64,000 nucleotides of DNA from an uncultured Bacillota bacterium (GTDB lineage: Bacteria > Sysuimicrobiota > Sysuimicrobiia > Sysuimicrobiales > Segetimicrobiaceae): contig CAWDRG010000005.1 in assembly GCA_963804645.1 (NCBI GenBank), forward strand, positions 224,001 through 288,000, in the 5' to 3' direction. The notes below the pieces were generated by a model, which worked only from the letters and a program-made list of their open reading frames with translations, did not search any database and was not told where the DNA came from. Shown here one piece after another: positions 37,181 through 54,334 of this stretch (the stretch's first letter is position 1; every line of letters starts with the position of its first letter). The translations under genes were made by a program, and so were the position numbers.

Positions 37181-37451
37181 CGCAGCGGCATGAACACAAC
37201 GTCTCCAGTCTGACGCCCGGAGCGCGCTCCCACCGCGCACCCGGCCGCGCTCCAGGAGAGGCACAAGCACTCGCCGTGAACCTTCCGTCCTACGTTTCTG
37301 AACTCCTCTCATCGTGCCGTGCGCCCGGTGCCCCAGGCCGCGGCGCAGCGCTGAGGAACGCGCGGACGCGTCCGCACGGCGTCTGGAGGAAACCGCCGTG
37401 GAACTCTCCAAGTACCCGACACGCCTGTCCGTCGACGAACGGGAGGAGATC

Positions 37452-38060
37452 ATGATGCGGAGAGCGCTGATTGCCGGTGCCCTGGCGGCGACGCTGTGTG
37501 CGGCCACGGCCGCGGGCGCCCAGGACACCCGCAAGATCGTGGCCGTCGTGGATTTCCAGGACGACGTGCACGGATGGACGAACACGAGCCAGGTCGTGAC
37601 CGATCGGCTGATCTCAGAGCTCAGGAACGACGCCGCGGTGCAGGTCTTAGCGCGCGGGCAGGTGGAAACCGCGCTGCAGAGCGCCAACGTGGGGACGCAG
37701 GGAGTGCTTGACGCGGGGGCCGCCCAGAAGATTGGACAATCGCTGGGGGCCGCCTACGTGGTGATGGGAGAGATCGACCAGTTCAACTGGGAGTACCACA
37801 GCGCGACCGTCCTCGTAGCGACGATCGTCCAGCAATCGGCCACTGTGGACCTCAAAGGCAAAGTGCTGGACGTGACGGGTGGACAGGTGATCGGGCAGCC
37901 CCAGGGCAAGGGGCAGATCACACAGACCGGCGGATCCACCTGGGTCGGGCCGTGGTGGTCCGACGTGTCGGTGGACAACTTCGACAACGAGCTGATCGGC
38001 AAGGCCACCAAGCAGTCGGTCGAACAGTTCGCGAAACAGGCGGTCCCGATGCTGAAATAG
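37452..38060 (+). CDS. Secreted CsgG/TolB-N-like protein
   Basis: Signal peptide; VAVVDF, AQKIGQSLGAAYVVMGEI, KVLDVTGGQVI; GGAGGAG RBS. Confidence 0.7.
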   Translation: MMRRALIAGALAATLCAATAAGAQDTRKIVAVVDFQDDVHGWTNTSQVVTDRLISELRNDAAVQVLARGQVETALQSANVGTQGVLDAGAAQKIGQSLGAAYVVMGEIDQFNWEYHSATVLVATIVQQSATVDLKGKVLDVTGGQVIGQPQGKGQITQTGGSTWVGPWWSDVSVDNFDNELIGKATKQSVEQFAKQAVPMLK

Positions 38061-38194
38061 GCCGCCGCGGCGGCCCACCACGGTGCTCCTGACACAACCG
38101 GACCGGGCCCGGGCCTCCGTCCCGGACGCACCCGGGGCACAGGGCCGGTGGAAGCCCCTGTGCCCGCGGTCCCCTCGCCGTCCGTGCGCGCTCC

Positions 38195-40597
38195 CTACGC
38201 CCCGGCGGGCGGCGTGAACGTCGTCACCACCGGCGGCGTCCCCACGTACTTCTCCACCTGCACCAGCACCGAGTTCGTCGGGTTCCCGCCCGACAACTTC
38301 GAACTCGGCGTGTCCGTCGTCAGGTTGTTCACGTTCCCGTGCCGGTCCAGCGTCCCCACCGACCCCGGCGTCAGCGGATCCGACCACGCCCCCTCGTTCA
38401 GCACCATCACGCCCCGCCGCACCCGCGCCGTCACCAGCGCCCCCGCCAGCGTCTGCCCCCGCCCGTTGAACACCCGCACCACGTCGCCGTTCATGATCCC
38501 CCGCGCCGCCGCGTCCTGGGGGCTAATCCAGAGCGGTTCCCGCCCCGCCACCTCATACGCGTGCCGCAGCCCCGTCTGATCCAACTGCGAGTGCAGCCGG
38601 TTCTTCGGGTGCGACGATAGCAGGTGCAGCGGGTACTGCGCCGTCTCCGGACTCCCCAGCCATTCCGTCGGCGGCAGCCACGTCGCGTGCGGCGGCGTGT
38701 CGTCATAGTTGAACCCCGCGATCGTGCTCGAGTACAGCTCGATCTTCCCCGACGGCGTCCCGAGCGGGTTGTTCGCCGGGTCGGCGCGGAACTGCGCGTA
38801 CGCGACCACCTCGTTGGCGGCATCCGGGGTGGGGAACTCCAGGTACCCCTGCTTCCAGAACGTGTCGAAGTCCGGCATCGTCAGACCCCGCTCCTGAGCC
38901 TGCTGCACGGCCGCCCCGTAGAACTGCCGCAGCCACGCCATCTCGTCCTTGCCCTCCGTGTACTGCTGACCGAAGCCGAGACGGGACGCCAGCCCGGCGC
39001 AGATGTCGAAGTCGCTGCGCGATTCGAACAGCGGCGGCACCATCTGCTGCATCGCCATGATAAACCGGTCGGTGTTGAACAGGTCGTTGCGCTCCATCGT
39101 CGTCGTCGCCGGCAGCACGATGTCGGCATGCCGCGCGGTCGGCGTCCACGCGTAGTCGTGCACGATCGTGACCTCCGGCCGCTGCCACGCCACGAACGCC
39201 CGGTTCGTGAACTGCGCCTGATTCAAGTGGTTCGACCCCGCCAGGTACACCAGCTTGATGTCCGGATACGTCAGCTTCCGCCCGTCGTAGTCCACCGTCT
39301 TCCCCGGACTCTGGATCAGGTCGATCCACAGGTTGAGCGGCACGAAGTCCTTCACGGGATTGACGCCCGCGGACAGCCCCGGCACGCTCGGCGCGCTCCC
39401 GAACGGCACGCCCAGCGCACCCGGGAAGTCGCACTGCAGTCCGCCGCCCGGAAGGCCGATCTGGCCGAGCATCGATGACAGCGTAATGAGCATCCAGATC
39501 GGCTGCTCGCCGTGCGACGACCGCTGCAGCGAATATCCTCCGATCAGCATCGTCCGGGACTTGGCCATCCGGCGCGCAAGCGTGCGAATCGTCTCGGCCG
39601 GCACCTCCGTGATCGCGGCCGCCCACTCCGGCGACTTCGCCTGCCCGTCGCTCTTCCCGCTCAGGTAGTCCGCGAACTGCGCAAATCCCACCGTGTACTT
39701 GTCCAGAAACGCCTTGTCGTACAGGTTCTCCGTGTACAGCACGTGCGCAAGGCCCAGCATCAGCGCCGTGTCCGTGTTCGGCCGGATCACGATCCGCTCG
39801 GGCCGCAGGTACTGGTCCGTGTCCGATTCCACCGGGTTGACCGAGACCACCGGGATCTTCGCGTCCCGCAGCCGTGCGATCCACTCCATGTCGAAGTGTC
39901 CGGCGGAGCCTCCGGACCGCATCTCGGCGTTGCGCAGCGGGTCGTATCCCACCGTGACGATGAGCGTGGTGTTTTTCAGGATGACCGGCCAGACCGACTG
40001 CCGCGGCGCCGCATCGCCCAAGATGTGCGGCGTGATCACCGGCAGCACCGGTGCGCTGTACGAGTTGATCCGGAACACAAACCCGCCGTACATCGTCAAC
40101 ATCCGCTGCACGGCCCCGCCGCCGCTGTGAAAGTTGCCCGGGCTCTGCCAGCCCTGCGACGAATAAATCGACCGGTTGCCGTACTGGGTCTTCACGCGCT
40201 TCAGCTCGCCGGCGACGATGTCGAGCGCCTCGTCCCACGACACGCGCACGAACGGCTCGAGGCCCCGCTGCGTCGCGTCGCTCTGCGACCGGTTCTTGTA
40301 GAAGCCCTGACGGATCATCGGGTACTTCACGCGATCCGGGGCATACAGCAGATCCGGCATCGCCGTGACCATCGCGTTCGGGTAGCGATCCGTGGCGAAC
40401 GGCACCGTCTTCACGAGCCGGCCGCCCACGACCTGACCACTGTACGGGCCCCAATGGGCAACGCCCAGGCGCGTGCCGGGTGGAGCATCCGCGGCCGCCG
40501 CGCCGACGGGCAACGCCCCCATCAGCGGTGCCACCATGGTGCCTCCGACGAGCAGCCCGCTCTGACTCAGGAACGACCTTCTGGTAATTGGCTTCAT
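38195..40597 (-). CDS. Tat-exported molybdopterin oxidoreductase, DMSO/TMAO/biotin-sulfoxide reductase family (copy 1)
   Basis: TRRSFL Tat motif; AHWG, RVKYPMIR, FVRVSWDEA, Ser ligand in SYSAPV, PNTDTALMLG, ADIVLPATT, RLHSQL. No N-terminal Fe-S cysteines. Confidence 0.92.
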   Translation of the reverse strand: MKPITRRSFLSQSGLLVGGTMVAPLMGALPVGAAAADAPPGTRLGVAHWGPYSGQVVGGRLVKTVPFATDRYPNAMVTAMPDLLYAPDRVKYPMIRQGFYKNRSQSDATQRGLEPFVRVSWDEALDIVAGELKRVKTQYGNRSIYSSQGWQSPGNFHSGGGAVQRMLTMYGGFVFRINSYSAPVLPVITPHILGDAAPRQSVWPVILKNTTLIVTVGYDPLRNAEMRSGGSAGHFDMEWIARLRDAKIPVVSVNPVESDTDQYLRPERIVIRPNTDTALMLGLAHVLYTENLYDKAFLDKYTVGFAQFADYLSGKSDGQAKSPEWAAAITEVPAETIRTLARRMAKSRTMLIGGYSLQRSSHGEQPIWMLITLSSMLGQIGLPGGGLQCDFPGALGVPFGSAPSVPGLSAGVNPVKDFVPLNLWIDLIQSPGKTVDYDGRKLTYPDIKLVYLAGSNHLNQAQFTNRAFVAWQRPEVTIVHDYAWTPTARHADIVLPATTTMERNDLFNTDRFIMAMQQMVPPLFESRSDFDICAGLASRLGFGQQYTEGKDEMAWLRQFYGAAVQQAQERGLTMPDFDTFWKQGYLEFPTPDAANEVVAYAQFRADPANNPLGTPSGKIELYSSTIAGFNYDDTPPHATWLPPTEWLGSPETAQYPLHLLSSHPKNRLHSQLDQTGLRHAYEVAGREPLWISPQDAAARGIMNGDVVRVFNGRGQTLAGALVTARVRRGVMVLNEGAWSDPLTPGSVGTLDRHGNVNNLTTDTPSSKLSGGNPTNSVLVQVEKYVGTPPVVTTFTPPAGA

Positions 40598-40787
40598 CGC
40601 GACCTCCCCATCCGTGTTGGTTCGTAGACCGCGGGTCGCACGTGCACCCGGTCCACGACCCCCTACACCATACCGACTGCCCGGGCCGGCGTGCATCCGC
40701 TCTCAACCCGATTCCGCGTACGGCCGCGTGGGCGACGCGTCGGGCGCGGCACGACCGTGCGGGACGAAAATTACTGCCTCGGACGGA

Positions 40788-40816
40788 TAGGCGCGCTGCG
40801 CAAACTCCGATACAGT
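40788..40816 (+). promoter_or_regulatory. Promoter of 6S-like RNA copy 1
   Basis: TAGGCG-N17-TACAGT; the RNA terminal stem starts 7 nt after the -10. The same geometry occurs in copy 2. Confidence 0.65.
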
Positions 40817-40822
40817 GTGGGT

Positions 40823-41002
40823 GGAGCGCACACGGCGACGTGCCGGATCACATGCCGCGGTCGCGGGAGTTACGCATCGGCCACGTTCACTTCGGACCGG
40901 CGCCCGAGCGGGCTTGGGCACGATCCCGGAGAGCACCAGCCGACGGGAGACCCCGAGGACCACGCCTGAAGATGGCACAGGCCGTTCTAGTAGGTGCGCT
41001 CC
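40823..41002 (+). ncRNA. 6S RNA-like rod-shaped ncRNA (copy 1, ~180 nt)
   Basis: Nested stems GGAGCGCAC/GTGCGCTCC, ACGGC/GCCGT, GTGCC/GGCAC, GGTC/GACC, a central bubble, TCGGC/GCCGA, CTTCGG/CCGGAG and apical GCCCGAG/CTTGGGC; T-run after the 3' end. Confidence 0.75.
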
Positions 41003-41173
41003 TCGAATTTTTCCAACGCTCCGAACCTGACCATGCACTGTCACCGATGGACGTGCATGACCCGTCCGCGCCGTGGGCGAGGACTTTCCGGACCGGCGCA
41101 GAACTTCGCGACCGGGCGCCCCGCTGCGGGCGCACCGAGGGATGGAACCAGCGGAACTCGAGGAGGTTCAAGC

Positions 41174-42505
41174 ATGAATGCCACACTCACGCGACGCGAC
41201 GTGCTGGCCGCCGCGGCCCTCGCCCTGGCCGGCCTGGCGTCTGGGGACGCGGCATCGGCGGCGGTTCCGAAGGTCGGCCCGATCAACATCTTGATCAACG
41301 ACTCGCCCTGGTACCACGGCTTTGAGCAGCTGGTACAGCTGTACCAGCAAACAACGGGCAATCAAGTCAAACTCACCGTCACGCCGTTCACCGGCATGCT
41401 CGAGCAAACGCGCAACACGGTCACCGGCCCCGAAAGCACCTTCGACATCGTGAATTTGAACGAAGCGTGGTACGCGACGTTCTACGCGGGCGGGTTTGTG
41501 TCCCCGATCAAGTCGATCGATCCCAGTTTCCAGCTGGATCCCAATATTATCGAGTACGTCTACTCGACCCGGTGGAACTTTCAGAAGAAGTACTCGACCC
41601 CGGACGGCGCCCTGCTCGGCCTCCCGATCAACGGGAACATCCAGGCGCTCTATTACCGCGCGGACCTCTTCCAGCAGGCGGGGCTCAAACCGCCGGAGAC
41701 CTGGACTGACGTCGCCGCGGCGGCGAAGCGGTTCCACAATCCGCCGAACATGTACGGGTTTGCCCAGCGCGGCCAGCGGGCGGGATGGTCGTGCGGGTTT
41801 GACTGGTTTGCGTTCCTCCGCGCCCATAAGAGCGACTGGGTCGCCAATCCGCCGGCCGACTGGGCCGTGACGATCGACAGCGCCGCGGCCAAGGCGTCCC
41901 TCGCGGAATGCGACGACCTGCTCAAATCCTATGGACCGCCGAATCTCGCGGGACTCGGCAACGCCGAACTGACCCAACTGTTGGCGAGCGGCAAGTTGGC
42001 GATGGCGAACGCGGTGATCGCGACCTTCCCGTTGCTCGACGACCCTCAGAGTTCGGCCGTCGTCAACAAGGTCAACGTCACGGTGATGCCGAGGGCGGCG
42101 AACGGGGTGCACGCGACGACGTCTGGCATCTGGGTCATGTCGATTCCTCACAACCTCCCGGACGCGCGGAAGAAGGCGGCGCTGACCTTCTTACAGTGGG
42201 CGCTCACGAAAGACGCACAGATCCAGTACACGAAATTCGGGGCCATCCCGGTGCGCCAGGACGTGTACAAGTCCGATCTTGCCAACCAGCCCCAATTCCG
42301 CTGGATGAAGGCCATGGCCGCGAGCACCTCGTACATCCACGAAAACGTCCGCATTCCGGAAGGCCCGCAGATTACGGACAGCATCGAGCTGCACGTGAAT
42401 CAGCTGTACGCGGGCCAGATGTCCGTCGACCAAGCGGCCGACGCGATGGCCCAAGACATCTACGGCATCTTGCAAAAGGGAGGGTACCCGACGAAGCGCG
42501 GCTGA
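41174..42505 (+). CDS. Carbohydrate ABC substrate-binding protein with Tat-like signal
   Basis: TRRDVL, LYYRADLF...PPETW; AGGAGG RBS. Confidence 0.9.
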   Translation: MNATLTRRDVLAAAALALAGLASGDAASAAVPKVGPINILINDSPWYHGFEQLVQLYQQTTGNQVKLTVTPFTGMLEQTRNTVTGPESTFDIVNLNEAWYATFYAGGFVSPIKSIDPSFQLDPNIIEYVYSTRWNFQKKYSTPDGALLGLPINGNIQALYYRADLFQQAGLKPPETWTDVAAAAKRFHNPPNMYGFAQRGQRAGWSCGFDWFAFLRAHKSDWVANPPADWAVTIDSAAAKASLAECDDLLKSYGPPNLAGLGNAELTQLLASGKLAMANAVIATFPLLDDPQSSAVVNKVNVTVMPRAANGVHATTSGIWVMSIPHNLPDARKKAALTFLQWALTKDAQIQYTKFGAIPVRQDVYKSDLANQPQFRWMKAMAASTSYIHENVRIPEGPQITDSIELHVNQLYAGQMSVDQAADAMAQDIYGILQKGGYPTKRG

Positions 42506-42535
42506 GCGCGGCCGTCGGCGGCCAACCCGCGCGCG

Positions 42536-43303
42536 TTATCGTTCGGCGCCGCCGACCCAGCGTACCGCGCCGGTCCAAAAGCGGGCATACTGGTTCCACC
42601 TCGTGAAGTATTCGCCCCAATGCGGACACGGGTCCGAGCTGAACGCGAGCACGCGGGCCCGGCCGAAGGTGCCGACCGCCAGGAGCGGGTACTCCTCGAT
42701 CGTGGCCAACAACACTGCCCCGGGCTTGAGCTTAGACTTGTTGTAGCCGAAGAAGACCGGACAGTCCTCCCAAGGAATATCCCGCGTGACCGGATGGTCC
42801 GCCTTCAGAATACGAGGGCGTACGCCTTCCGGCGTATCCTCACGATCGTCCACGACGTTCAGTACCTCGAGCGGCAGCGCCTCGGCGAGCGCCGTCCCGT
42901 ACCAGTGCGCCGCCCCGTTGCGGCCCTGAAAGCTGACGTACCCGCCCGCATAAATCAGCCCGCCTCCCTCGCGGACAAACCGCGTCAGTTCGCGCATGCG
43001 GTTCGGCCGAGGGCGGAGCGGCTGCCCCTCCTCCAGCGGATAGGTCGTAAAGGTGTCGGCCCCAATGTCGCTGAGGATGACCACGTCGTAGTCGGCGCGG
43101 AGCGCCTCCGCCGTTTCGGGAAACTGCATGAAGGTCAGGTACGGCGGCAGGTGCGTGACCCTGATGTCGGGATCGGACGCGAGCGCGTTTCGCAGATGGC
43201 GGGCCGCATCTTTCACGCGGCTGACGTACTGGGTCACCTCGGCACCCTTCACCTCGGTCTCGAGCCGAATCGAGCCGTCTCCCACGTACAACACGCGAAT
43301 CAT
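42536..43303 (-). CDS. Class I glutamine amidotransferase-like protein (DUF1355 type)
   Basis: YDVVILSDIGA, GGLIYAGGYVSFQG, SDPCPHW. Confidence 0.82.
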   Translation of the reverse strand: MIRVLYVGDGSIRLETEVKGAEVTQYVSRVKDAARHLRNALASDPDIRVTHLPPYLTFMQFPETAEALRADYDVVILSDIGADTFTTYPLEEGQPLRPRPNRMRELTRFVREGGGLIYAGGYVSFQGRNGAAHWYGTALAEALPLEVLNVVDDREDTPEGVRPRILKADHPVTRDIPWEDCPVFFGYNKSKLKPGAVLLATIEEYPLLAVGTFGRARVLAFSSDPCPHWGEYFTRWNQYARFWTGAVRWVGGAER

Positions 43304-43382
43304 ATGCACAACCTCCGGTCGGAGTATCCTGCCACGCGCGGCCCCGCCGCATGCCCGATCGGCCCCGCGCGCCGCCAGGCGG

Positions 43383-44687
43383 TCACGACAGGGGCCGCGC
43401 GGGCCCGCGGGGCGACACTTGATCCGGATCGTTCGCCACCGCGCCGGCGGGGACCGGCAGACGGCCGGTGCGAAGTGGATCGTCGGTCTCCGCCATCCAC
43501 CGCTCGAGGCGCGCCCGCATCTCGAGCAGCGCGGCCGCGTAGGCCGGCGATTCGGCGACGTTGCACGCCTCCCCGGGATCAAAGACCAGGTCGTACAACT
43601 GCTCCGCGGTGACCGGACGATCCCGCCACCCAGACGCGAGCCACAGGTCTTTTCCGGGGCTGTCGTCCGTGTTCGCGAGCACCGGTGTCGCACGGCCGTC
43701 AAAGCGCCGGATGTACTTGTACCGGCGCGTGCGCACGGCACGCTGCGGTTCGTACGCCGCGTGGTAGTTGATTTCAGCCACGACCTGATCGCGGACCTCG
43801 TCCGCATCCCCGCGCACCAGAGGCAGCAGCGACGTCCCCTGCACCCAGCCGGGGGCGGAAATCCCGAGCAACTCGCAGAGCGTCGGAAACAAGTCGATAT
43901 GAGACACCAGCGCGTCGCAGACCCGTCCGCCGGTGAAGCCCCCGGGACCCCGCAGCACCAGCGTCACGCCGATGCCGTGGTCCGTCAACGTACACTTCAT
44001 CCCGGGAAACGGCGGCCCGTGGTCGGTCGTAAAGATGACCAGCGTCTCTCCCGCTCCTCCTCGGCCGTCGATCGCGCGCAGGACCTCCCCGACTCCCTCG
44101 TCGAGCGCCCGGAGGCTGGCGTTGAACGCGGCGACATCGCACCGGATGGCCGGCGTGTCGGGCAGCGTTGGCGGAGGCAGACAATAGCGCGGGTCCGCGG
44201 CGGCTCCGGGCGGCGGAAATTCACGGTGGGTCTCCCAGAACCCCACGGACAAGAAAAACGGCCGGTCAGGCGGCTGCGTAAGAAATGCCGCGGCGGCCGA
44301 CGCCACGTCTCGCGCGCACCGGCTCGCTGCGGCGAGGGTCGCATCGTATCCGACGCGGACCGTCCGGCGCGCGATGTGCTGCACCCCGACGGCGGCGCTG
44401 TAGTATCCGGCCGTACGCAACGTATGCACCAGGTGACGGCCGTAGTCGTACAGAGCGAATCCGCGATGCGCCAATCCGAGCATGCCGTTCGTATGCGGAT
44501 ACTGCCCGGTCAGCAGTGCGGCGCGGCTCGGCGAACACGTCGGCGCGGCGCTGTATGCCTGCCGGCAGAGCATTCCGTCTTCCGCGAGCGCCTGGATGTT
44601 CGGGGTCGGGACGTCATGGCCAAATGGACGCACGTAGCGCCCGGTGTCGTGGGAATGCAGGTACACGATGTTTGGCGGTCGCGTCAT
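43383..44687 (-). CDS. Cys-type formylglycine sulfatase (sulfamidase/SGSH-like)
   Basis: PNIVYLHSHD, CSPSRAALLTG, TTDHG, EQLYDL..DP.E. Confidence 0.92.
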   Translation of the reverse strand: MTRPPNIVYLHSHDTGRYVRPFGHDVPTPNIQALAEDGMLCRQAYSAAPTCSPSRAALLTGQYPHTNGMLGLAHRGFALYDYGRHLVHTLRTAGYYSAAVGVQHIARRTVRVGYDATLAAASRCARDVASAAAAFLTQPPDRPFFLSVGFWETHREFPPPGAAADPRYCLPPPTLPDTPAIRCDVAAFNASLRALDEGVGEVLRAIDGRGGAGETLVIFTTDHGPPFPGMKCTLTDHGIGVTLVLRGPGGFTGGRVCDALVSHIDLFPTLCELLGISAPGWVQGTSLLPLVRGDADEVRDQVVAEINYHAAYEPQRAVRTRRYKYIRRFDGRATPVLANTDDSPGKDLWLASGWRDRPVTAEQLYDLVFDPGEACNVAESPAYAAALLEMRARLERWMAETDDPLRTGRLPVPAGAVANDPDQVSPRGPARPLS

Positions 44688-45745
44688 CTGATAATCTCCT
44701 CCGCGTGTGTCTCAGCGGCACGGTAGATCGCCTCGGCGATCACCACCGCCGCCAACCCGTCGTGGGCAGACCGATCAGGCGGTGCCTCGCCCCTCACCAT
44801 CGCCAGCCAATGGCGATGCTGCCGCAGCCCGACGTCTTCGGGAACAATCTCCGGCGCGACCCACCCGCTGTCACGGTGCACCGCCAGCGGCCCGCGCTCG
44901 GTACGCAGCCACGCCGTTCCGCGTGTCCCGTAGATCTCCAGGCGGAACCGATCGGTGCCGGCGCGTTCGGCATAGCACATCTCATGGACGCCTCGCAGCC
45001 CGCTGTCAAACGTATAGAGCGCGAGCGCCACGTCTTCGAGTTCGGGCACCACCACCCGACCCTCCCGGATGGTGCGTTCGTGCACGGTCCTCGCGGTTGT
45101 CGCCTGGACCGCCCGAATCTCGCCAAAGAGGTACCGCAGCAGATCGATCCCGTGGCTGCCGAGCTGCATCACGACCCCGCCTGCCGCCTGGTCCTTGCGG
45201 TAGAACCATGCCGCCCAATCCGCCCCGGGGGTCGCGTTGCGCTGAGACACCATGGCCAGCGACCCCAGCGCCTCTTCCGCAAGCAGCCGGCGGATCGTCT
45301 CGATCTCGGGGAAGTATCTGTGCATGAAACTGACGCACAGCAACACCCCGGCGTGCTCCGCAGCGGCCATGATCTCGAGACATTCCGCGCGGTTGCGCGC
45401 CATCGGTTTCTGCAGCAAAATGGCCTTCCCGGCGCGCGCCGCGTCCACGGCCATGGGCGCGTGGGTGAAATCCGGCGTGGCGATCACCACGGCATCAATA
45501 TCGCGCCGGTCCAGAATATCCTGGTACCGGGTTGTCGCCATGGGAACGCCATGCCTCCGGGCCTCGGCCTGCACCCTCTCGCCGTCGCGGCTAAACAACG
45601 CGACGACCGCGGCGCCCGCGTCCTGCAGCCCTCGGATGTGGTACGCGCTGATGGAGCCCGCGCCCAAGACGCCCACCCGAACGCGCATGAGGCCGGCCGC
45701 GCGCGTACGCCGCACAGAGACCGGCAGCGCGTCCCGACCGCTCAC
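44684..45745 (-). CDS. Gfo/Idh/MocA family oxidoreductase
   Basis: GVLGAGSI, ATPDFTH, GKAILLQKP, GSHGID. Confidence 0.9.
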   Translation of the reverse strand: MSGRDALPVSVRRTRAAGLMRVRVGVLGAGSISAYHIRGLQDAGAAVVALFSRDGERVQAEARRHGVPMATTRYQDILDRRDIDAVVIATPDFTHAPMAVDAARAGKAILLQKPMARNRAECLEIMAAAEHAGVLLCVSFMHRYFPEIETIRRLLAEEALGSLAMVSQRNATPGADWAAWFYRKDQAAGGVVMQLGSHGIDLLRYLFGEIRAVQATTARTVHERTIREGRVVVPELEDVALALYTFDSGLRGVHEMCYAERAGTDRFRLEIYGTRGTAWLRTERGPLAVHRDSGWVAPEIVPEDVGLRQHRHWLAMVRGEAPPDRSAHDGLAAVVIAEAIYRAAETHAEEIIR

Positions 45746-46572
45746 TTGAGGGCGCCCAGGGTCAGCCCCCGCACGATCTGCCGCTGCGCCAGAACGACGA
45801 CGATGATCGCCGGGATCGTGGCAAAAAATGCGGCCGCGCTCATGTCGCCGTAGCGGATGACGTACTGCTGCGCGTACTTGGCGATGCCGACCGGAATCGT
45901 CACGGCGTTCGTGGCCGTCAGGTTCAGGGCGAAGAGAAACTCGTTCCAGCTAAACACAAAACTCAGAATCGCGACGGCCGCGAGTCCCGGAGCGATCAGC
46001 GGGGCAACGATCTGGACAAACGTCCGGACGTTCGAGGCCCCGTCGATGTGGGCCGCCTCCTCTAGCTCCGTCGGCAGGTCGCCCACGAAGCTCTGCACGA
46101 TCCAGACGGCCATCGGCAGGTTGAGCACCAGGTAGGATAGGATGAGCGCGAGCCGGGTGTCGTACAGTCCGAGCGCACGGAACAAGAGGTAGTAGGGGCC
46201 AACGATCGTGACACCGGGCACCATGTGGAAGATTAACACCCACCCGGCGACGATCGCGGCCGTGTGTCGCGGCCAACGAAACCGCTCCAGGCTGTAGCCC
46301 GCAAGCGCCGCCACCACCACCACCAACGCCGTGGCGACGCTCGCCACCACGAGGCTATTGACCGTGTTCACGATGAAATTGGACTGCAGACTAAAAAATA
46401 GGTGGGTGTAATTGTCCAGCGTCGGCCGGAACACCCACGCCCCGGTGAGGATATCGATCTGGTACTTGATCGACGTGAGGAACGTCAGGACGAAGGGGAT
46501 CAACGTAACAAGCACGCCGAGGGCGAGGACCGGCAGTGCGAGCGCCGGCGAGCGCCGGCCGAAGATCCTCAC
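45742..46572 (-). CDS. Carbohydrate ABC permease (MalG-like)
   Basis: LEEAAHIDGA, WNEFLFA. Confidence 0.92.
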   Translation of the reverse strand: MRIFGRRSPALALPVLALGVLVTLIPFVLTFLTSIKYQIDILTGAWVFRPTLDNYTHLFFSLQSNFIVNTVNSLVVASVATALVVVVAALAGYSLERFRWPRHTAAIVAGWVLIFHMVPGVTIVGPYYLLFRALGLYDTRLALILSYLVLNLPMAVWIVQSFVGDLPTELEEAAHIDGASNVRTFVQIVAPLIAPGLAAVAILSFVFSWNEFLFALNLTATNAVTIPVGIAKYAQQYVIRYGDMSAAAFFATIPAIIVVVLAQRQIVRGLTLGALK

Positions 46573-47561
46573 GCGCGCGCCTCTCGGCGGCGGGCCGCGC
46601 GTAGGTAGACCGCCACAAATACCACGGTCGTGAGGATCGTGACAACGGAGAGAAACGCGGCGTAGCCCATGCGGGACTGCGGAAAAAACACCTGATAAAT
46701 GTAGAAGCTGATCACTTCGGAAGCCGTCCCGGGGCCGCCGCCGGTCAACAGAAAGACCTCATCGAACACCTTGAAGGCAAAAATCGTCCGAAAGAGCACC
46801 GCCACGAGAATCGTCGGTCGCAGCAGCGGAAGGACGACATACCGGAGCACTTGCCATCCCGACGCCCCGTCCACGCGCGCGGCCTCGATCGGCTCGGCGG
46901 GCAACGATTCGAAGCCGGCGAGCATCAAGAGAAACACAAACGACGTCCAGTGCCAGATATCGACAACCATGATCGAAGGAAGCGCCAGGTGGGGATTCGC
47001 GGTCCAGCTCTGGGCCGGCAGGTGCAGGAATCGCAGGACGACGTTGAAAATCCCGGTTTCGTAGTTGTACATCAGACTCCAGATCGTGCCGATCGCGATG
47101 CCGGGCACCAGGATTGGAATCATCAACAGTTGCCGTGCAAGACCGGCCGCTCTCCCGACTTCACTCGCGAGCAGCGCCAAGGTGAACCCGAGCACGGTTT
47201 CCACCACGACCGTCACGACAACAAACACGATCGTGTTGCCGATCGCGGCGAAAAACACATGGTCGCGCAGCAACGTGCGGAGATTGTCGAGGCCCGACCA
47301 CGTCCAAATGACCTGCCCTTGGCCGAAGGACACCGTCGAGAAGCTCATGCCGACCAACTCGAGGAGCGGGAACACGGTGAGCGCCAGCAACACCAACAGG
47401 GCCGGCAGGAGCGCCCAGTACTGAAACGCGCGATCGAACCGCTCGCCGAGCGGTCCGCGACGTCTCGGCGCGGTCTCGCGCGCCCCCGTGCTCCCAAACG
47501 CACAGCCTTTCACGCCACTCTCCGTGCGCGTCGATTCGCACATCCGGTCGACGCGACTCAC
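46569..47561 (-). CDS. Carbohydrate ABC permease (MalF-like); start uncertain
   Basis: DIWHWT, IEAARVDGA, LTGGGP. Confidence 0.9.
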   Translation of the reverse strand: MSRVDRMCESTRTESGVKGCAFGSTGARETAPRRRGPLGERFDRAFQYWALLPALLVLLALTVFPLLELVGMSFSTVSFGQGQVIWTWSGLDNLRTLLRDHVFFAAIGNTIVFVVVTVVVETVLGFTLALLASEVGRAAGLARQLLMIPILVPGIAIGTIWSLMYNYETGIFNVVLRFLHLPAQSWTANPHLALPSIMVVDIWHWTSFVFLLMLAGFESLPAEPIEAARVDGASGWQVLRYVVLPLLRPTILVAVLFRTIFAFKVFDEVFLLTGGGPGTASEVISFYIYQVFFPQSRMGYAAFLSVVTILTTVVFVAVYLRAARRREARA

Positions 47562-47721
47562 CGCGGTCTGGAGCCGTCGGCGTCAAGGATCTCCGGGAAA
47601 CGGCCCCTCGCGCAGAGAAGCCGGTCGCTCGATATTCGCGACCATGCTACCCCGTCCTCCCGCGCGCCTACGGAGGATGAGTGGAGGAACCGTTTTGCGC
47701 GTCCCCGAACCCGAGTGCCGC

Positions 47722-48714
47722 ATGGGATATTTCCTCGGGGTCGACGGCGGTGCCTCCAGCACAAGCTGCGCGGTGTGCGACGATGACGGCGCAGTCCTCG
47801 GCATCGGCCGCGGGTACGCCAGCAACCACATCCTCGCGCCCGGCGGACGAGAGCGCGCGCGCGCCGCGGTCGGCGGGGCCATCCAGGCGGCACTGCGGGC
47901 AGCCGGGCTCGGGACGATCGAGTACCGTGCGGTCCAGTTCGGCATGACCGGAATCGTGGCAGGCAGCGAGCGTGCGGATGCGTTCGCGGAGGTCGCTGCG
48001 GATCTGCTCAAGGCCGAGACGGTGCTCATCCATGAGGATTCCTGGATTGCGCTCGCCGGCGCCCTGGCCTGCGGGTCCGGTGTCATGGTCATCGCCGGGA
48101 CCGGGTCGATCGCCGTGGGCCTGGATCCCGACGGCCGCGTCGCCCGCGCCGGGGGCTGGGGCTACCTCTTCGGAGACGACGGCAGCGCGTTCGCGTTGGG
48201 CCGCGGCGGCGTGCACGCCGCGCTCCACGCCCGCGACGGCACCGGGCCGGACACGAACCTGGTCGAGCACATCCCTGCGGTGGTCGGCATGGACCTGGCC
48301 GCGATCACGTGGGAGTATTACCAAGGACGTCTCGACCGCGCCGTGATCGCTCGGCTGGCCGCCGTGGTCACGGAGTCGGCCGCCGCGGGCGATCCCGTCG
48401 CCCGGCGCCTCGTCGCGGAGGCCGCCACGGCGCTGGCGAACCTTGCGGCGGCGGTGACCCACCGCCTTCACTGGCCTGATGGCGCCACCGCGGTCGCACC
48501 GGTGGGTGGGGTGTTCGACGCCGGCGCGACCATCCTGCATCCGCTGCGCGAGGCGCTCGCCTCCCGCGCCCCCGGGGCGGTTCTCGTGCCCCCGCGGTAC
48601 GACCCGGCCGCGGGCGCTCTGCTGCTGGCGCTGCGCGCGGCGGGTGTGCCGCACACCCCCGAGCGGCTCGCACTGCTCGCCGCGACGTGGGAACTGCGGT
48701 CGACCGCGCCGTGA
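47722..48714 (+). CDS. BadF/BcrA-type N-acetylhexosamine kinase
   Basis: LGVDGGASST, IAGTGS, RAGGWGYLFGDDGSA. Confidence 0.88.
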   Translation: MGYFLGVDGGASSTSCAVCDDDGAVLGIGRGYASNHILAPGGRERARAAVGGAIQAALRAAGLGTIEYRAVQFGMTGIVAGSERADAFAEVAADLLKAETVLIHEDSWIALAGALACGSGVMVIAGTGSIAVGLDPDGRVARAGGWGYLFGDDGSAFALGRGGVHAALHARDGTGPDTNLVEHIPAVVGMDLAAITWEYYQGRLDRAVIARLAAVVTESAAAGDPVARRLVAEAATALANLAAAVTHRLHWPDGATAVAPVGGVFDAGATILHPLREALASRAPGAVLVPPRYDPAAGALLLALRAAGVPHTPERLALLAATWELRSTAP

Positions 48715-49409
48715 GCTCCGGGTGGGAGCACCGGCTGCGGGGCGGCCTGATCGTGTCGTGCCAGGCGCTGCCGGACAGTCCCCTGCGTGATCCGGACATG
48801 ATCGCCGCGCTCGCACGATGTGCCGAGCGCGGCGGTGCCGTGGGCGTCCGCATCGACGGCCCGGCGGACATCGCCGCGGTCCGCCGCGTGGTCACCCTGC
48901 CGATCATCGGACTCTACAAGGTCGCCCGCGATCGACCGGTGTACATTACGCCGACGTTCGCGGAGGCGCACGCCATCGCGCACGCCGGAGCGGACCTCAT
49001 CGCGCTGCAGGCGACGCGAGAGCGCGGCACGGACCGGACCGCCGACCCGCTGGCCGCCCTCATCGCCCGCATTCACGCGGAATGCGGGATCCCGGTGATG
49101 GCGGATGTCTCGAGCCTGGACGAGGGGCTCGGGGCTGCCGCGAGCGGGGCCGATGTCGTCGCCACTACGATGGCGGGCTACACTCCGCACAGCCGGCAGA
49201 TGAGCGGACCCGATCTCGAGCTGATTCGCGAACTCGCCCAGGCCCTCGCCGTTCCGATCGTGGCCGAAGGACGGATCTCAACGCCGGAGGAGGCCGCGGC
49301 GGCGCGCCGCGCCGGCGCGTTTGCGGTGGTCGTCGGCCGCGCGATCACGATGCCTGAGGCCATTACGGCCAGGTTTGTCTCGGCCGTCGGCAGCGCTGCG
49401 GGTACCTAA
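48711..49409 (+). CDS. nanE: N-acetylmannosamine-6-phosphate 2-epimerase
   Basis: GLIVSCQA, PIIGLYK, VYITPT, MAD, TTMAGYT, AEGRI, VVVGRAIT. Confidence 0.93.
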   Translation: MSSGWEHRLRGGLIVSCQALPDSPLRDPDMIAALARCAERGGAVGVRIDGPADIAAVRRVVTLPIIGLYKVARDRPVYITPTFAEAHAIAHAGADLIALQATRERGTDRTADPLAALIARIHAECGIPVMADVSSLDEGLGAAASGADVVATTMAGYTPHSRQMSGPDLELIRELAQALAVPIVAEGRISTPEEAAAARRAGAFAVVVGRAITMPEAITARFVSAVGSAAGT

Positions 49410-49476
49410 CCAGGACGGGCACAGGGCCGGTGGAAGCCCCTGTGCCCGCGGTCCCCTCGCCGTCCGTGCGTGCGCT

Positions 49477-51882
49477 CTATGCCCCTGCGGGCGGCGTGAA
49501 CGTCGTCACCACCGGCGGCGTCCCCACGTACTTCTCCACCTGCACCAGCACCGAGTTCGTCGGGTTCCCGCCCGACAACTTCGAACTCGGTGTGTCCGTC
49601 GTCAGGTTGTTCACGTTCCCGTGCCGGTCCAGCGTCCCCACCGACCCCGGCGTCAGCGGATCCGACCACGCCCCCTCGTTCAGCACCATCACGCCCCGCC
49701 GCACCCGCGCCGTCACCAGCGCCCCCGCCAGCGTCTGCCCCCGCCCGTTGAACACCCGCACCACGTCGCCGTTCATGATCCCCCGCGCCGCCGCGTCCTG
49801 GGGGCTAATCCAGAGCGGTTCCCGCCCCGCCACCTCATACGCGTGCCGCAGCCCCGTCTGATCCAACTGCGAGTGCAGCCGGTTCTTCGGGTGCGACGAT
49901 AGCAGGTGCAGCGGGTACTGCGCCGTCTCCGGACTCCCCAGCCATTCCGTCGGCGGCAGCCACGTCGCGTGCGGCGGCGTGTCGTCATAGTTGAACCCCG
50001 CGATCGTGCTCGAGTACAGCTCGATCTTCCCCGACGGCGTCCCGAGCGGGTTGTTCGCCGGGTCGGCGCGGAACTCCGCGTACGCGACCACCTGGTTGGC
50101 GGCGTCCGTGACCGGGAATTCCAGGTACCCCTGCTTCCAGAACGTGTCGAAGTCCGGCATCGTCAGACCCCGCTCCTGAGCCTGCTGCACGGCCGCCCCG
50201 TAGAACTGCCGCAGCCACGCCATCTCGTCCTTGCCCTCCGTGTACCGGTCGCCAAGGCCCAGCCGGGGTGCCAGCCCCGCACAGATGTCGAAGTCGCTGC
50301 GCGATTCGAACAGCGGCGGCACCACCTGCTGCATCGCGATGATGAACCGGTCCGTGCTGCAGAGGTCGTTGCGCTCCATCGTCGTCGTCGCCGGCAGCAC
50401 GATGTCGGCATGCCGCGCGGTCGGCGTCCACACGTAGTCGTGCACGATCGTGACCTCCGGCCGCTGCCACGCCACGAACGCCCGGTTCGTGAACTGCGCC
50501 TGATTCAAGTGGTTCGACCCCGCCAGGTACACCAGCTTGATGTCCGGATACGTCAGCTTCCGCCCGTCGTAGTCCACCGTCTTCCCCGGACTCTGGATCA
50601 GGTCGACCCACAGGTTGAGCGGCACGAAGTCCTTCACGGGGTTGACCCCGGTCGGCAGCCCCGCCACGCTCGGCGCGCTGCCGATCGGCAGCCCCAACCC
50701 GCTGCTCGGCGAGTCAGCCTGCAGCCCGCCGCCCGGAAGGCCGATCTGCCCCAGCATCGACGCAAGGGTCACGAGCATCCAGATCGGCTGTTCGCCGTGC
50801 GACGCCCGCTGCATGGAGTATCCGCCCATCGTGATCGTGCGCGACTTAGCCATCCGGCGCGCGAGCGTGCGAATCGTCTCGGCCGGCACCTCCGTGATCG
50901 CGGCCGCCCACTCCGGCGACTTCGCCTGCCCGTCGCTCTTCCCGCTCAGATAGTCCGCGAACTGCGCAAACCCCACCGTGTACTTGTCCAGAAACGCCTT
51001 GTCGTACAGGTTCTCCGTGTACAGCACGTGCGCAAGGCCCAGCATCAGCGCCGTGTCCGTGTTCGGCCGGATCGCGATCCGCTCGGGCCGCAGGTACTGG
51101 TCCGTGTCCCCTTCCACCGGGTTGATCGAGACCACCGGGATCTTCGCGTCCCGCAGCTGCGCGATCCATGCCATGTCGAAGTGCGTGCCGTTCCCGCCCG
51201 AACGCATCTCCGCGTTCCGGAGCGGATCGTGCCCGAAGAATACGATCAGGGTGCTGTGCTGGAGAATCACCGGCCATGCCGACTGCCGCGGCGCCGCATC
51301 GCCCAAGATGTGCGGCGTGATCACCGGCAGCACCGGCGCGCTGTACGAGTTGATCCGGAACACGTAGCCGCCGTACATGCCCAACAGACGCTGTACGGCC
51401 CCGCCGGCACTGTGAAAGTTCCCGGCGCTCTGCCAGCCTTGCGCCGAATAGATCGACCGGTTGCCGTACTGGGTCTTCACGCGCTTCAGCTCGCCGGCGA
51501 CGATGTCGAGCGCCTCGTCCCACGACACGCGCACGAACGGCTCGAGGCCCCGCTGCGTCGTGTCGCTCTGCGACCGGTTCTTGTAGAAGCCCTGGCGGAT
51601 CATCGGGTACTTCACGCGGTTCGGAGCGTACAGCAGATCCGGCATCACTGTGACCATCACGTTCGGGTAGCGATCCGTGGCGAACGGCACCGTCTTCATC
51701 AACCGTCCCCCTGCCACCTGGGCGCTGAACGGGCCCCAATGCGCGACGCTGATGCGCGTCGCGGTCTCGGCATCTGCGGCCGCCGCGCCGGTCGGCAGCA
51801 CCCCTACCAGCGGCGCTGCCACCACGCCTCCGAGGAGCAACCCGCTCTGGCTCAGGAACGACCTTCTCGTGACTGGTTTCAT
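49477..51882 (-). CDS. Tat-exported molybdopterin oxidoreductase, DMSO/TMAO/biotin-sulfoxide reductase family (copy 2)
   Basis: Same motifs as copy 1; the C-terminal ~190 aa are identical by eye. Confidence 0.92.
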   Translation of the reverse strand: MKPVTRRSFLSQSGLLLGGVVAAPLVGVLPTGAAAADAETATRISVAHWGPFSAQVAGGRLMKTVPFATDRYPNVMVTVMPDLLYAPNRVKYPMIRQGFYKNRSQSDTTQRGLEPFVRVSWDEALDIVAGELKRVKTQYGNRSIYSAQGWQSAGNFHSAGGAVQRLLGMYGGYVFRINSYSAPVLPVITPHILGDAAPRQSAWPVILQHSTLIVFFGHDPLRNAEMRSGGNGTHFDMAWIAQLRDAKIPVVSINPVEGDTDQYLRPERIAIRPNTDTALMLGLAHVLYTENLYDKAFLDKYTVGFAQFADYLSGKSDGQAKSPEWAAAITEVPAETIRTLARRMAKSRTITMGGYSMQRASHGEQPIWMLVTLASMLGQIGLPGGGLQADSPSSGLGLPIGSAPSVAGLPTGVNPVKDFVPLNLWVDLIQSPGKTVDYDGRKLTYPDIKLVYLAGSNHLNQAQFTNRAFVAWQRPEVTIVHDYVWTPTARHADIVLPATTTMERNDLCSTDRFIIAMQQVVPPLFESRSDFDICAGLAPRLGLGDRYTEGKDEMAWLRQFYGAAVQQAQERGLTMPDFDTFWKQGYLEFPVTDAANQVVAYAEFRADPANNPLGTPSGKIELYSSTIAGFNYDDTPPHATWLPPTEWLGSPETAQYPLHLLSSHPKNRLHSQLDQTGLRHAYEVAGREPLWISPQDAAARGIMNGDVVRVFNGRGQTLAGALVTARVRRGVMVLNEGAWSDPLTPGSVGTLDRHGNVNNLTTDTPSSKLSGGNPTNSVLVQVEKYVGTPPVVTTFTPPAGA

Positions 51883-52128
51883 CGCGTCCCCCCCGCCGTG
51901 CTAGTCTCCCGCGTACCGCCGCTGGGCGGGTCGGCACCCGCCGCCCCTCCACCGGTCCCGCGGGTCGAAGTTCTCACCAAAACAGAGATGGAACTCCGCC
52001 ACGTCTACCATACCGACGGCCCGGGCCGACGCCTATCCCCTCTCAACCTGATTCCGCGCTCGCACGGCAGACCCGCCTGAGGGTGACGCGCCTCGGCCGC
52101 GCGCGGCGCAAATAGTCTCTCGGACTGA

Positions 52129-52157
52129 TAGGCACGCGGGAAATCGTGGGATACACT
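52129..52157 (+). promoter_or_regulatory. Promoter of 6S-like RNA copy 2
   Basis: TAGGCA-N17-TACACT; the RNA stem begins 7 nt after the -10. Confidence 0.65.
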
Positions 52158-52163
52158 ATGCAT

Positions 52164-52340
52164 GGAGCGCACGCGGCGATGTGCCGAGTCAAACGCCGCG
52201 GTCGGGATGCCGAGAGTCGGCCACGTTCACTCCGGGCAGTCGCCCAAGAACGACGGGCAGGACGCCGGAGAGCACCAGCCGACGGTAGGCCCCGGAGGCC
52301 GCGTCTGAAGACGGCACCGGCCGCACCAACAGTGCGCTCC
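52164..52340 (+). ncRNA. 6S RNA-like rod-shaped ncRNA (copy 2, ~177 nt)
   Basis: GGAGCGCAC/GTGCGCTCC, GCGGC/GCCGC, GTGCCG/CGGCAC, GCGGTC/GGCCGC, bubble, TCGGC/GCCGA, CTCCGG/CCGGAG; followed by TAAATTTTT. Confidence 0.75.
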
Positions 52341-52416
52341 TAAATTTTTCGCCGGAGACTCGCACCGATGCCGCCGTGTCGATTTGACGACGCGTACGGC
52401 ACGCCGACGCCCGGCG

Positions 52417-53274
52417 TCAGCCCAACTTGCGGAGCCGCGGGTCGAGCATATCCCGCACGCCGTCGCCCACAAAGTTGAACCCGAGCACGAGGCACAGAAT
52501 CGCGAGCGCGGGAAACGTCGCGATCCACCACTGGTCCATCAGGAAGTTGCGCCCTTCGGAGACCATGAGTCCCCACTCCGGCGTCGGCGGCTGCGCCCCG
52601 AACCCGATAAACGACAGCCCCGCCGAGATGAGGATGATGGAGCCGATGTTGAGCGTCGCCTGGACGAACAGCGGCGCGAGCGCGTTGGGGATGAGATGGC
52701 GCACGATGATGACGACGTCGGTGGCCCCCTGCGCCCGCGCGGCTTCGACATAGTCTTTCGTCCGCAGCGTCAGGATCTGGGCACGCATCACCCGTGCATA
52801 CGACGGCCATGAGGTAATCGCGATTGCGATCAGGGCGTTCGTCAGGCTCGGTCGCAGAATGGCGGAGATCGCCATGGCCAGAATCAAACTCGGAAACGCC
52901 AGGAACATGTCCGTCACGCGCATCAGCGACTCGTCCCACCACGCCCCCAGCCAGCCGGCGCTGGTGCCGGTGATGACGCCGAACGCGGCAGCGGCCGATA
53001 CCACGGTGATGCCGGAGACGACGGAGATGCGGGCGCCGTAGACCACCCGGCTGTAGACGTCGCGGCCGAGCGAGTCCAGACCGAACGGGTGCGCGGTGCT
53101 CGGCGCCCCGAGCCGCTTCGCGAGATCCTGGGCGAGCGGGTCTTGAAGGGCGAGCCACGGGGCGAGCAGCGCGATCAGCACGAACGCCGCGATCAATCCC
53201 ACGCCGATCAGCGTGAGCGGACTCCGGCGCACCGCACGCCAGGCGACGTGCGTGGCCCCGCGGTCCCGGGTCAC
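52417..53274 (-). CDS. Peptide ABC permease (DppC-like)
   Basis: HPFGLDSLGRD, YVEAARAQGA, PEWG, GDGVRDMLDPR. Confidence 0.92.
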   Translation of the reverse strand: MTRDRGATHVAWRAVRRSPLTLIGVGLIAAFVLIALLAPWLALQDPLAQDLAKRLGAPSTAHPFGLDSLGRDVYSRVVYGARISVVSGITVVSAAAAFGVITGTSAGWLGAWWDESLMRVTDMFLAFPSLILAMAISAILRPSLTNALIAIAITSWPSYARVMRAQILTLRTKDYVEAARAQGATDVVIIVRHLIPNALAPLFVQATLNIGSIILISAGLSFIGFGAQPPTPEWGLMVSEGRNFLMDQWWIATFPALAILCLVLGFNFVGDGVRDMLDPRLRKLG

Positions 53275-53275
53275 G

Positions 53276-54289: not shown

Positions 54290-54334
54290 CGTGGGAGGCG
54301 GGGGCCGGCCAGCGCCGGCCCCCGCGGTCGAGCG

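Follow-up and report, generated by a model that had tools for sequence, protein, structure and literature searches.

A repeated unit of a reductase gene and an RNA gene

The window, by which we mean the whole stretch of 64,000 nt analysed here (G000:C5:224001-288000, G000 being the genome under study, that of an uncultured soil bacterium, and C5 the contig), contains a unit of about 2.9 kb that is present twice. Repeat finding placed the two units at 38135-41012 and 49417-52350, about 11.28 kb apart. Each comprises a hairpin at its left edge, a minus-strand gene for a reductase with a twin-arginine translocation (Tat) leader, back-to-back promoters and a plus-strand RNA gene, with an intergenic region of about 225-280 nt between the reductase and the RNA. 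An initial annotation of this stretch had described such a duplicated unit, and had proposed that it forms a regulatory system of an exported reductase and its own 6S-like RNA. The unit and its parts were confirmed at the positions given here, and a whole-genome search added a third unit at G000:C11:199083-201896.

In unit 1 the hairpin (38135..38166, minus strand; read from the sequence and identical in unit 2) lies 3′ of reductase copy 1 (38195..40597, minus strand, 800 aa). The reductase promoter (40667..40713, minus strand) stands back to back with the RNA promoter (40770..40816, plus strand), and RNA copy 1, a rod of about 185 nt followed by a T-run, extends over 40823..41012 on the plus strand. 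The corresponding features of unit 2 are the hairpin 3′ of reductase copy 2 (49417..49448, minus strand), reductase copy 2 (49477..51882, minus strand, 801 aa), its promoter (52007..52053, minus strand), the RNA promoter (52111..52157, plus strand) and RNA copy 2 (52164..52350, plus strand). The third RNA copy (C11:201709-201895) is divergent to a Tat-type molybdopterin oxidoreductase gene, so that all three RNAs of this kind in G000, termed type A below, are divergent to a reductase paralogue.

In a base-by-base profile the borders of the unit are sharp, at about 38143 and about 40978; beyond them identity is 25-53%. The edges of the unit are the outer ends of the reductase and RNA genes. Direct-repeat pairs within it differ in identity, with 98% for 38135-38434 and 49417-49716, 90% for 39422-39721 and 50707-51006, 84% for 40877-40908 and 52217-52248, and 83% for 40916-40984 and 52255-52323. 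The reductase genes (38143-40635 versus 49425-51920) are a mosaic, in which a 400-nt stretch is 100% identical and other blocks are 77-85% identical. The RNA and spacer parts of units 1 and 2 show 63-78% identity, and the DNA that separates the conserved promoter blocks is divergent, with 35-63% over 40635-40777, in agreement with the initial annotation. While the mosaic of the genes ranges from 77 to 100%, the RNA copies are 76% and 70% identical, the latter value referring to the C11 copy. We infer from the mosaic an old duplication, the coding parts of which were probably homogenised by gene conversion. Since the intergenic region of the C11 unit is homologous to those of the other two, the whole unit has been multiplied and not the gene alone.

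Structure of the RNA

The 5′ end of the RNA, GGAGCGCAC, pairs with GTGCGCTCC at the 3′ end about 175 nt further on, which is followed by the T-run. Both window copies are predicted to fold into long irregular hairpins (−83.9 kcal/mol and z −2.5 for copy 1, −94.3 kcal/mol and z −4.6 for copy 2). A consensus fold was calculated by RNAalifold from an independent MAFFT alignment of 49 sequences, and contains 35 pairs in seven helices, with 95.9% of the cells paired. Compensatory changes were present in 21 of the 35 pairs, compared to 12.2 ± 1.5 in column shuffles, and none of 500 shuffles matched the observed value on any of five measures. When the partners were slid by 1-3 columns, pairing fell to 36-54% and the number of compensatory pairs to 6-9. 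The pairs 27-169, 79-118 and 83-113 are mostly G-U and would be A-C mismatches on the opposite strand, which fixes the strand of the RNA. By its covariation and its separate promoter the predicted transcript is a genuine structured RNA, and to this extent the initial annotation holds.

Small internal loops part the consensus helices. Near the apex the consensus leaves 12 by 12 alignment columns unpaired, its widest such stretches, and most of these positions do pair when single sequences are folded. Strongly conserved unpaired nucleotides are GA(N)UCAAAC facing GAAGAC, and GA(N)A facing AGUA, the second of which presumably resembles a loop-E or sarcin-ricin-type motif. The conserved internal loops are common to type A and to a constitutively promoted second type of the family (type H, see below), and suggest that a conserved protein partner may be bound. 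A protein-binding role is our leading guess for this RNA, with binding of RNA polymerase as a minority possibility.

Parts of the unit are also present in 20 public runs, and four metatranscriptome runs of one peat study were examined as contigs. In all four the reductase gene was covered by contigs, between 38146 and 40568. A contig of 176 nt with three differences maps to 40854-41026, approximately the position of the RNA, in one of these runs. Contigs were missing from the end of the neighbouring GH31 gene, from the intergenic spacer and from most of the solute-binding protein gene; as contigs are no proof of absence, this distribution was not used as evidence.

Distribution of the RNA family

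A covariance model, R1, was built from nine sequences. The window copies match it over its full length (model positions 1-172) with 146.5 bits for copy 1 and 170.5 bits for copy 2; they were partly used to build the model, so that these scores are given by construction, and the independent support for the family comes from about 40 lower-scoring relatives. Blastn detected one homologue each in six relatives. Across the class, which is our whole sample of the phylum, 74 of 94 genomes contain an R1 RNA (the counts include two unpublished genomes, G034 and G062, with one match each). This phylum is most likely Candidatus Sysuimicrobiota/CSP1-3. All 23 genomes of the bacterium's own family carry the RNA, with 1-6 copies each (six in G010), while outside this family it is mostly single-copy, and none was found in the 12 genomes of family f4. 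The members are rod-shaped and 162-190 nt long, with a consensus of about 172 nt. The R1 family is a new one, unannotated in Rfam, and is expanded in the family to which the bacterium belongs. The phylum is uncultivated and described as probably facultatively anaerobic (PMC11604079); term searches in the main texts of papers on the phylum found no mention of dimethyl sulfoxide, trimethylamine N-oxide, dormancy, hypoxia or non-coding RNA.

G000 has five members, namely the three type-A RNAs, which start with GGAGCGCAC, and two nearly identical type-H RNAs, which start with GAGGCGCAA and are located on contigs C9 and C15. Tandem pairs of type-H-like RNAs, about 300 nt apart, were found in two other genomes (G013:C21:20789-21267 and G021:C33:96041-96551). 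A scan of public records with a gapped 18-base pattern yielded 5 true R1 members among the 80 loci listed, and one R1-matching public locus is from Candidatus Geohabitans tengchongensis, which NCBI assigns to Candidatus Sysuimicrobiota.

As a separate observation, the single-copy RNA outside the bacterium's family adjoins nnr (NAD(P)H-hydrate repair) divergently in 12 of 18 loci (families f5, f2 and f7). It usually lies between acpS and nnr and opposes the row glmS-acpS-nnr, from which we draw no hint on function.

Comparison to 6S RNA and other known RNAs

6S RNA binds the sigma-70-type holoenzyme and serves as template for short product RNAs. Its fold is a hairpin-like rod, opened in the centre by a large unpaired bubble that resembles an open promoter (PMC9130861). 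The R1 RNA shares with 6S RNA (RF00013) a length of about 170-190 nt, a mostly double-stranded rod with paired ends, a promoter of its own and a presence in most genomes of the lineage. However, the large central bubble is absent from the single-sequence folds and from the consensus of 49 sequences, and an alignment of the 6S sequences of the phylum has no visible similarity to the R1 family. A search with Rfam 15 gave nothing at gathering score in the window. RF00013 had no match at E ≤ 5 in 36000-54500, nor at E ≤ 10 on a slice of 261 nt or in the whole G000 genome, and a permissive search with all of Rfam 15 on the window slice and a type-H copy returned chance-level matches alone (E 3-5).

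RF00013 was detected in 67 of the 94 genomes (in 63 above the cut-off), and always at loci apart from the R1 matches; G034 and G062 are among the genomes counted here as well. Both RNAs occur in 61 genomes, R1 RNA alone in 13, 6S RNA alone in 6, and neither in 14. In G041, for example, 6S RNA is located at C1:2697358, and R1 RNAs at C1:710644 and C1:2283537. The co-occurrence with canonical 6S RNA at other loci, in 61 of the 74 R1-bearing genomes, is decisive: R1 RNA is not 6S RNA, and the 6S-like part of the initial annotation does not stand.

The initial annotation had also raised the question of a separate housekeeping 6S RNA, which thus exists beside R1 RNA in 61 of the 94 genomes but was not detected in G000. 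There, RF00013, blastn with the weak 6S RNA of a relative from the genus, nhmmer with a lineage alignment (filters on or off), a fuzzy search for the core motif, and Rfam searches of two syntenic intergenic regions found no canonical 6S RNA; the assembly is 96.8% complete, so that this does not prove its absence. Among the genomes of the genus, RF00013 matched in one of seven (G006, a weak match of 43.9 bits, below the cut-off), compared to 14 of 16 in the rest of the family.

The Ms1 RNA of Actinobacteria binds the core of RNA polymerase (PMC4191392; PMC9130861), has a length of about 300 nt, and carries terminal hairpins in addition to a central bubble (PMC9130861). The R1 RNA is similar to Ms1 in being a second rod-like RNA beside or in place of 6S RNA in one lineage, and in being missed by the Rfam models. 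It differs by its length of 162-190 nt and the lack of such a bubble.

Two further candidates were rejected. For signal recognition particle RNA, a full-length large form (RF01854, 204.9 bits) lies elsewhere in the genome, on contig C10. A riboswitch or leader of the downstream solute-binding protein gene (41174-42502) was dismissed since copies 2 and 3 are followed by other genes or by convergent ones.

Promoters of the RNA and of the reductase

No sigma-70 consensus promoter was found in 38000-41200, which fits the non-consensus −35 boxes reported in the initial annotation. In all 15 type-A loci a TAnnnT box ends 6 nt before the 5′ G of the RNA, and the sequence AATAC...CCGAT(A/G)G is conserved upstream of this −10 box. 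Reductase promoters have AATC(G/A)G...C(G/C)GAT(A/G) at an equal distance from their own TAnnnT box; as previously claimed, this enzyme-side block is present in both units of the window. The pattern AAT-N13-GAT[AGC]-N21-TAnnnT is exact in 12 of the 15 type-A promoters, one has N20, and copy 1 and the promoter from G011 are small variants (in the alignment, copy 1 has an insertion of 1 nt, with TACAGT as −10 box). Of the eight reductase promoters examined, four have the same pattern at N21 and a fifth, L047, has it at N22. L047 and one of the four, L052, come from other metagenome-assembled genomes (MAGs) that have no RNA nearby.

The conserved block is a quasi-palindrome, (A/T)ATCGG-N8-CCGAT(A/T), at about −54 to −33, overlapping the −35 position. 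Class II activator sites overlap this position as well. The promoters of RNA and enzyme have a common, conserved and probably activator-dependent architecture, which makes co-induction plausible; this architecture is also seen where the genes are unlinked. The promoter of type H is different: it is sigma-70-like (TTGnCG-17-TAnAAC) and has no match to the weight matrix described below.

The weight matrix was derived from 11 sites of relatives only and used to scan both strands of G000, with three Markov-2 simulated genomes as control. All six promoters of the three G000 units, three for RNAs and three for the adjacent reductases, were recovered. In the window, the RNA promoters of copies 1 and 2 scored 30.5 bits (C5:264770-264816) and 27.9 bits (C5:276111-276157), and the reductase promoters 16.4 bits (C5:264667-264713) and 18.5 bits (C5:276007-276053). 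The regular expression also identified the reductase promoter of copy 1, which reads AAT-N13-GATG-N21-TATGGT, and both promoters of unit 2. At thresholds of ≥16, ≥18 and ≥20 bits the genome contains 28, 20 and 11 matches, versus 3, 4 and 3, then 2, 0 and 0, and finally 1, 0 and 0 in the simulated genomes.

Most of the extra matches are located 10-120 nt upstream of an open reading frame (ORF). The genes behind them include four for CBS or CBS-BON proteins, the fourth C11 reductase, a cold-shock protein and glutamate dehydrogenase. A 502-aa ORF (G000:C4:2986-4494) directly behind a site of 25.9 bits, among the best of all, has no Pfam match at E ≤ 0.01; its identity as a GAF sensor kinase was considered and ruled out.

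The sites cluster in two islands, C11:187-218 kb and C22:18-47 kb, which encode two Usp proteins, PFK, GAPDH, PFOR, transhydrogenase, ADP-forming acyl-CoA synthetase, adenylate kinase and a NarL/LuxR-type response regulator; a homologue of a GAF-HisKA_3 kinase is encoded on the C11 island, and the candidate regulator on C22 (locus L147:11267-11989). This island (C11:187000-218500, about 30 kb) contains at least seven sites together with four reductase paralogues, a TorD-like chaperone gene and a CHAD gene, in addition to four genes for CBS or CBS-BON proteins and genes for Usp, cold-shock protein, PFK, adenylate kinase and ADP-forming acyl-CoA synthetase.

In the mycobacterial DosR/DevR dormancy regulon, a NarL-family regulator and a GAF-HisKA_3 kinase control genes of the Usp, alpha-crystallin, CBS and PFK type. 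These gene families are all found in the motif-bearing islands or beside type-A RNAs, and the link between the regulator and the motif is that of a candidate. DrrS (MTS1338) is a DosR-regulated small RNA of Mycobacterium tuberculosis (PMC5360333). Type-A RNA is like DrrS a stand-alone small RNA whose promoter would belong to a stress or dormancy regulon under a NarL-family response regulator. The two RNAs are unrelated in sequence, however, and in the present case the regulator is a predicted one and the RNA has a constitutive paralogue.

The reductases and their linkage to the RNA

The twin-arginine leaders, read by eye from the translations, are MKPITRRSFLSQSGL... in copy 1 (with the motif TRRSFL) and MKPVTRRSFLSQSGL... 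in copy 2. Both copies match TIGR00509 (bisC_fam) over the full length, with 942.8 and 954.2 bits compared to a cut-off of 1017.55, and the TorA model NF011682 with 805 and 824 bits compared to a cut-off of 909. Because these scores are under all curated cut-offs, copies 1 and 2 are to be regarded as members of the superfamily and not as equivalogs. Leader and family matches support an exported S/N-oxide reductase, as put forward in the initial annotation, and assign it to the TorA/BisC family. The proteins of copies 1 and 2 are 91% identical, copy 1 and the C11 copy 72%, and the best orthologue in another MAG (L045) has 80% identity.

The reductase of the C11 unit is the first of three tandem paralogues, followed by a gene for a chaperone of the TorD/DmsD family and, just past it, by a fourth, more distant paralogue. 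The C11 paralogues carry the Pfam domains Molybdopterin_N, Molybdopterin and Molydop_binding. Including the two window copies, G000 has at least six reductase paralogues. Likeness to the molybdopterin guanine dinucleotide S/N-oxide reductases TorA, DorA and BisC is seen in the full-length model matches, the twin-arginine leader and the chaperone gene of the C11 cluster, whereas the scores below all model cut-offs and the presence of at least six paralogues in one genome are differences. No gene for a TorC-like pentahaem partner was found adjoining reductase copies 1 and 2.

The initial annotation had named RNA homologues without linkage to molybdoenzymes in relatives as an outcome that would refute it, and this outcome was obtained. 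We annotated the flanks of 12 type-A loci from 10 relatives, mostly with about 1.5 kb per side (two loci are on short contigs with less), and none of the 12 has a molybdoenzyme gene as neighbour. A divergent gene for a GAF-HisKA_3 sensor kinase stands beside the RNA in five of them. Other neighbours encode Hsp20 (three loci), PFK (three), LonB (two, one of them also with a cold-shock gene), CBS-BON (one) and Usp (one), as well as malic enzyme, CtaG, an RNase-J-like protein and alcohol dehydrogenase. Conversely, model R1 gave no match at 35 reductase loci of other genomes, among them the 10 loci of the closest reductase orthologues (45-80% identity, up to 3 kb of flank). The adjacency of RNA and reductase is specific to G000. 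In the absence of linkage in relatives, the proposed module is better described as a lineage-specific co-duplication within a wider regulon than as a dedicated two-part system.

In the window, the DNA between the units (41174-49409) is a cluster for the utilisation of amino sugars and sulfated sugars, with genes for the solute-binding protein, a GATase1-like protein, a sulfatase, a GFO/IDH/MocA oxidoreductase, two ABC permeases, a BadF/BadG-type kinase and NanE. A mobile-element origin of the units was rejected, as the DNA between them consists of these sugar-utilisation genes and has no transposase.

Discussion

We consider it fairly probable that type-A RNA is a stress-regulon RNA of a new family and that the reductase is co-regulated with it, both having been co-duplicated in G000 under a shared activator-type promoter. 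A dimeric activator would read the quasi-palindrome, and the likeliest candidate for this activator is the NarL/LuxR-type response regulator, with the GAF-HisKA_3 sensor kinase of the same islands as its partner. It would switch on a hypoxia- or dormancy-like stress regulon that includes genes for CBS, CBS-BON and cold-shock proteins, the S/N-oxide reductases and type-A RNA; the islands with members of the regulon also hold Usp and PFK genes. The RNA and the reductase would be co-induced through membership of this one regulon. Their adjacency would have arisen when the back-to-back promoter unit of the C11 stress island gave rise to two further copies in sugar-utilisation loci, and later gene conversion would have homogenised parts of the coding sequence. 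Judged from the promoters, co-regulation of RNA and reductase in one stress regulon is likely.

Several observations weigh against this explanation. An RNA tree leaves the three G000 copies unseparated. The closest reductase orthologue (L045, 80% identity) fails the strict promoter pattern and has no RNA. The regulon is defined by a weight matrix and crude ORF calls, by which five of the 28 matches have no downstream ORF, besides the two before RNAs, and some genes behind sites have no obvious role in stress (solute-binding protein, MFS transporter, HlyD, glycoside hydrolase). The motif does not appear to resemble the mycobacterial DosR box, so that the label "hypoxia/dormancy" derives from the gene content alone. 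The metatranscriptome contigs are mute on strand, ends and level, and DNA carry-over, copy 2 or strain variants may contribute to them.

That the C11 neighbours were passively copied together, with a promoter similarity that has no regulatory meaning for the pair, would agree with a linkage confined to G000, with unit edges that are the outer ends of the two genes, and with gene conversion as the cause of the high identity within the genes. We regard this as rather unlikely, since the motif stands at equal spacing from the −10 box before type-A RNAs and reductases in genomes where these are unlinked and is at least about 7 times as frequent as in simulated genomes, and since both old RNA copies keep their structure via compensatory changes. 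The long imperfect inverted repeat beside the promoters could in principle be an element at the DNA level, such as a long palindromic operator or a recombination site, instead of an RNA gene. This is hardly conceivable. Most sequences retain certain pairs as G-U, which would have no meaning in DNA and would be lost on the other strand; a −10 box stands at a set position and a T-run follows at the 3′ end; the family is conserved throughout the phylum in unrelated genomic contexts; and an RNA library yielded a contig of about the size of the element.

The dedicated system of the initial annotation would induce an exported S/N-oxide reductase together with a 6S-like decoy for RNA polymerase, and so couple the use of an alternative electron acceptor to global transcription. 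It draws on the divergent position of all three type-A RNAs of G000 to a reductase paralogue, the promoter architecture common to both, the rod-like fold near the length of 6S RNA, and the failure of RF00013, blastn, nhmmer and the two syntenic regions to reveal a canonical 6S RNA in G000. Its co-induction part remains plausible because of the shared promoter architecture, which is also seen where the genes are unlinked. The decoy system itself is unsupported and in our view very improbable: the 12 type-A loci of 10 relatives are free of molybdoenzyme genes in the flanks examined and the RNA is missing from the 10 closest orthologue loci, RF00013 gives no match even on short slices, 61 of the 94 genomes have a 6S RNA elsewhere besides R1 RNA, the consensus fold lacks the large central bubble, and the promoter signal is also found before many unrelated genes. 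A slim chance may be given to a broader idea, by which the family of about 172 nt would serve a core machine such as RNA polymerase or the ribosome as an RNA partner confined to the phylum, with type H constitutive and type A stress-induced. The expanded family would then have assumed 6S-like global control in the genus, and type A would be under the switch that also governs anaerobic S/N-oxide respiration. In the genus, 6S RNA is undetectable in six of seven genomes, and each of the six genomes with a completeness of 86% or more carries 3-5 R1 copies.

Our results correct a reading that was attractive but wrong: proximity to an enzyme gene does not make a rod-like RNA a 6S RNA, nor does repetition turn a gene pair into a system. 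They add a well-supported structured RNA family, missing from Rfam, to a candidate phylum without cultured members, and show that one lineage diversified this family into differently promoted paralogues. From sequence alone, a candidate stress regulon emerges, with a promoter signal, about 20-28 target promoters, and a candidate kinase and regulator. Metatranscriptome studies of soil and peat gain concrete markers by these genes and RNAs.

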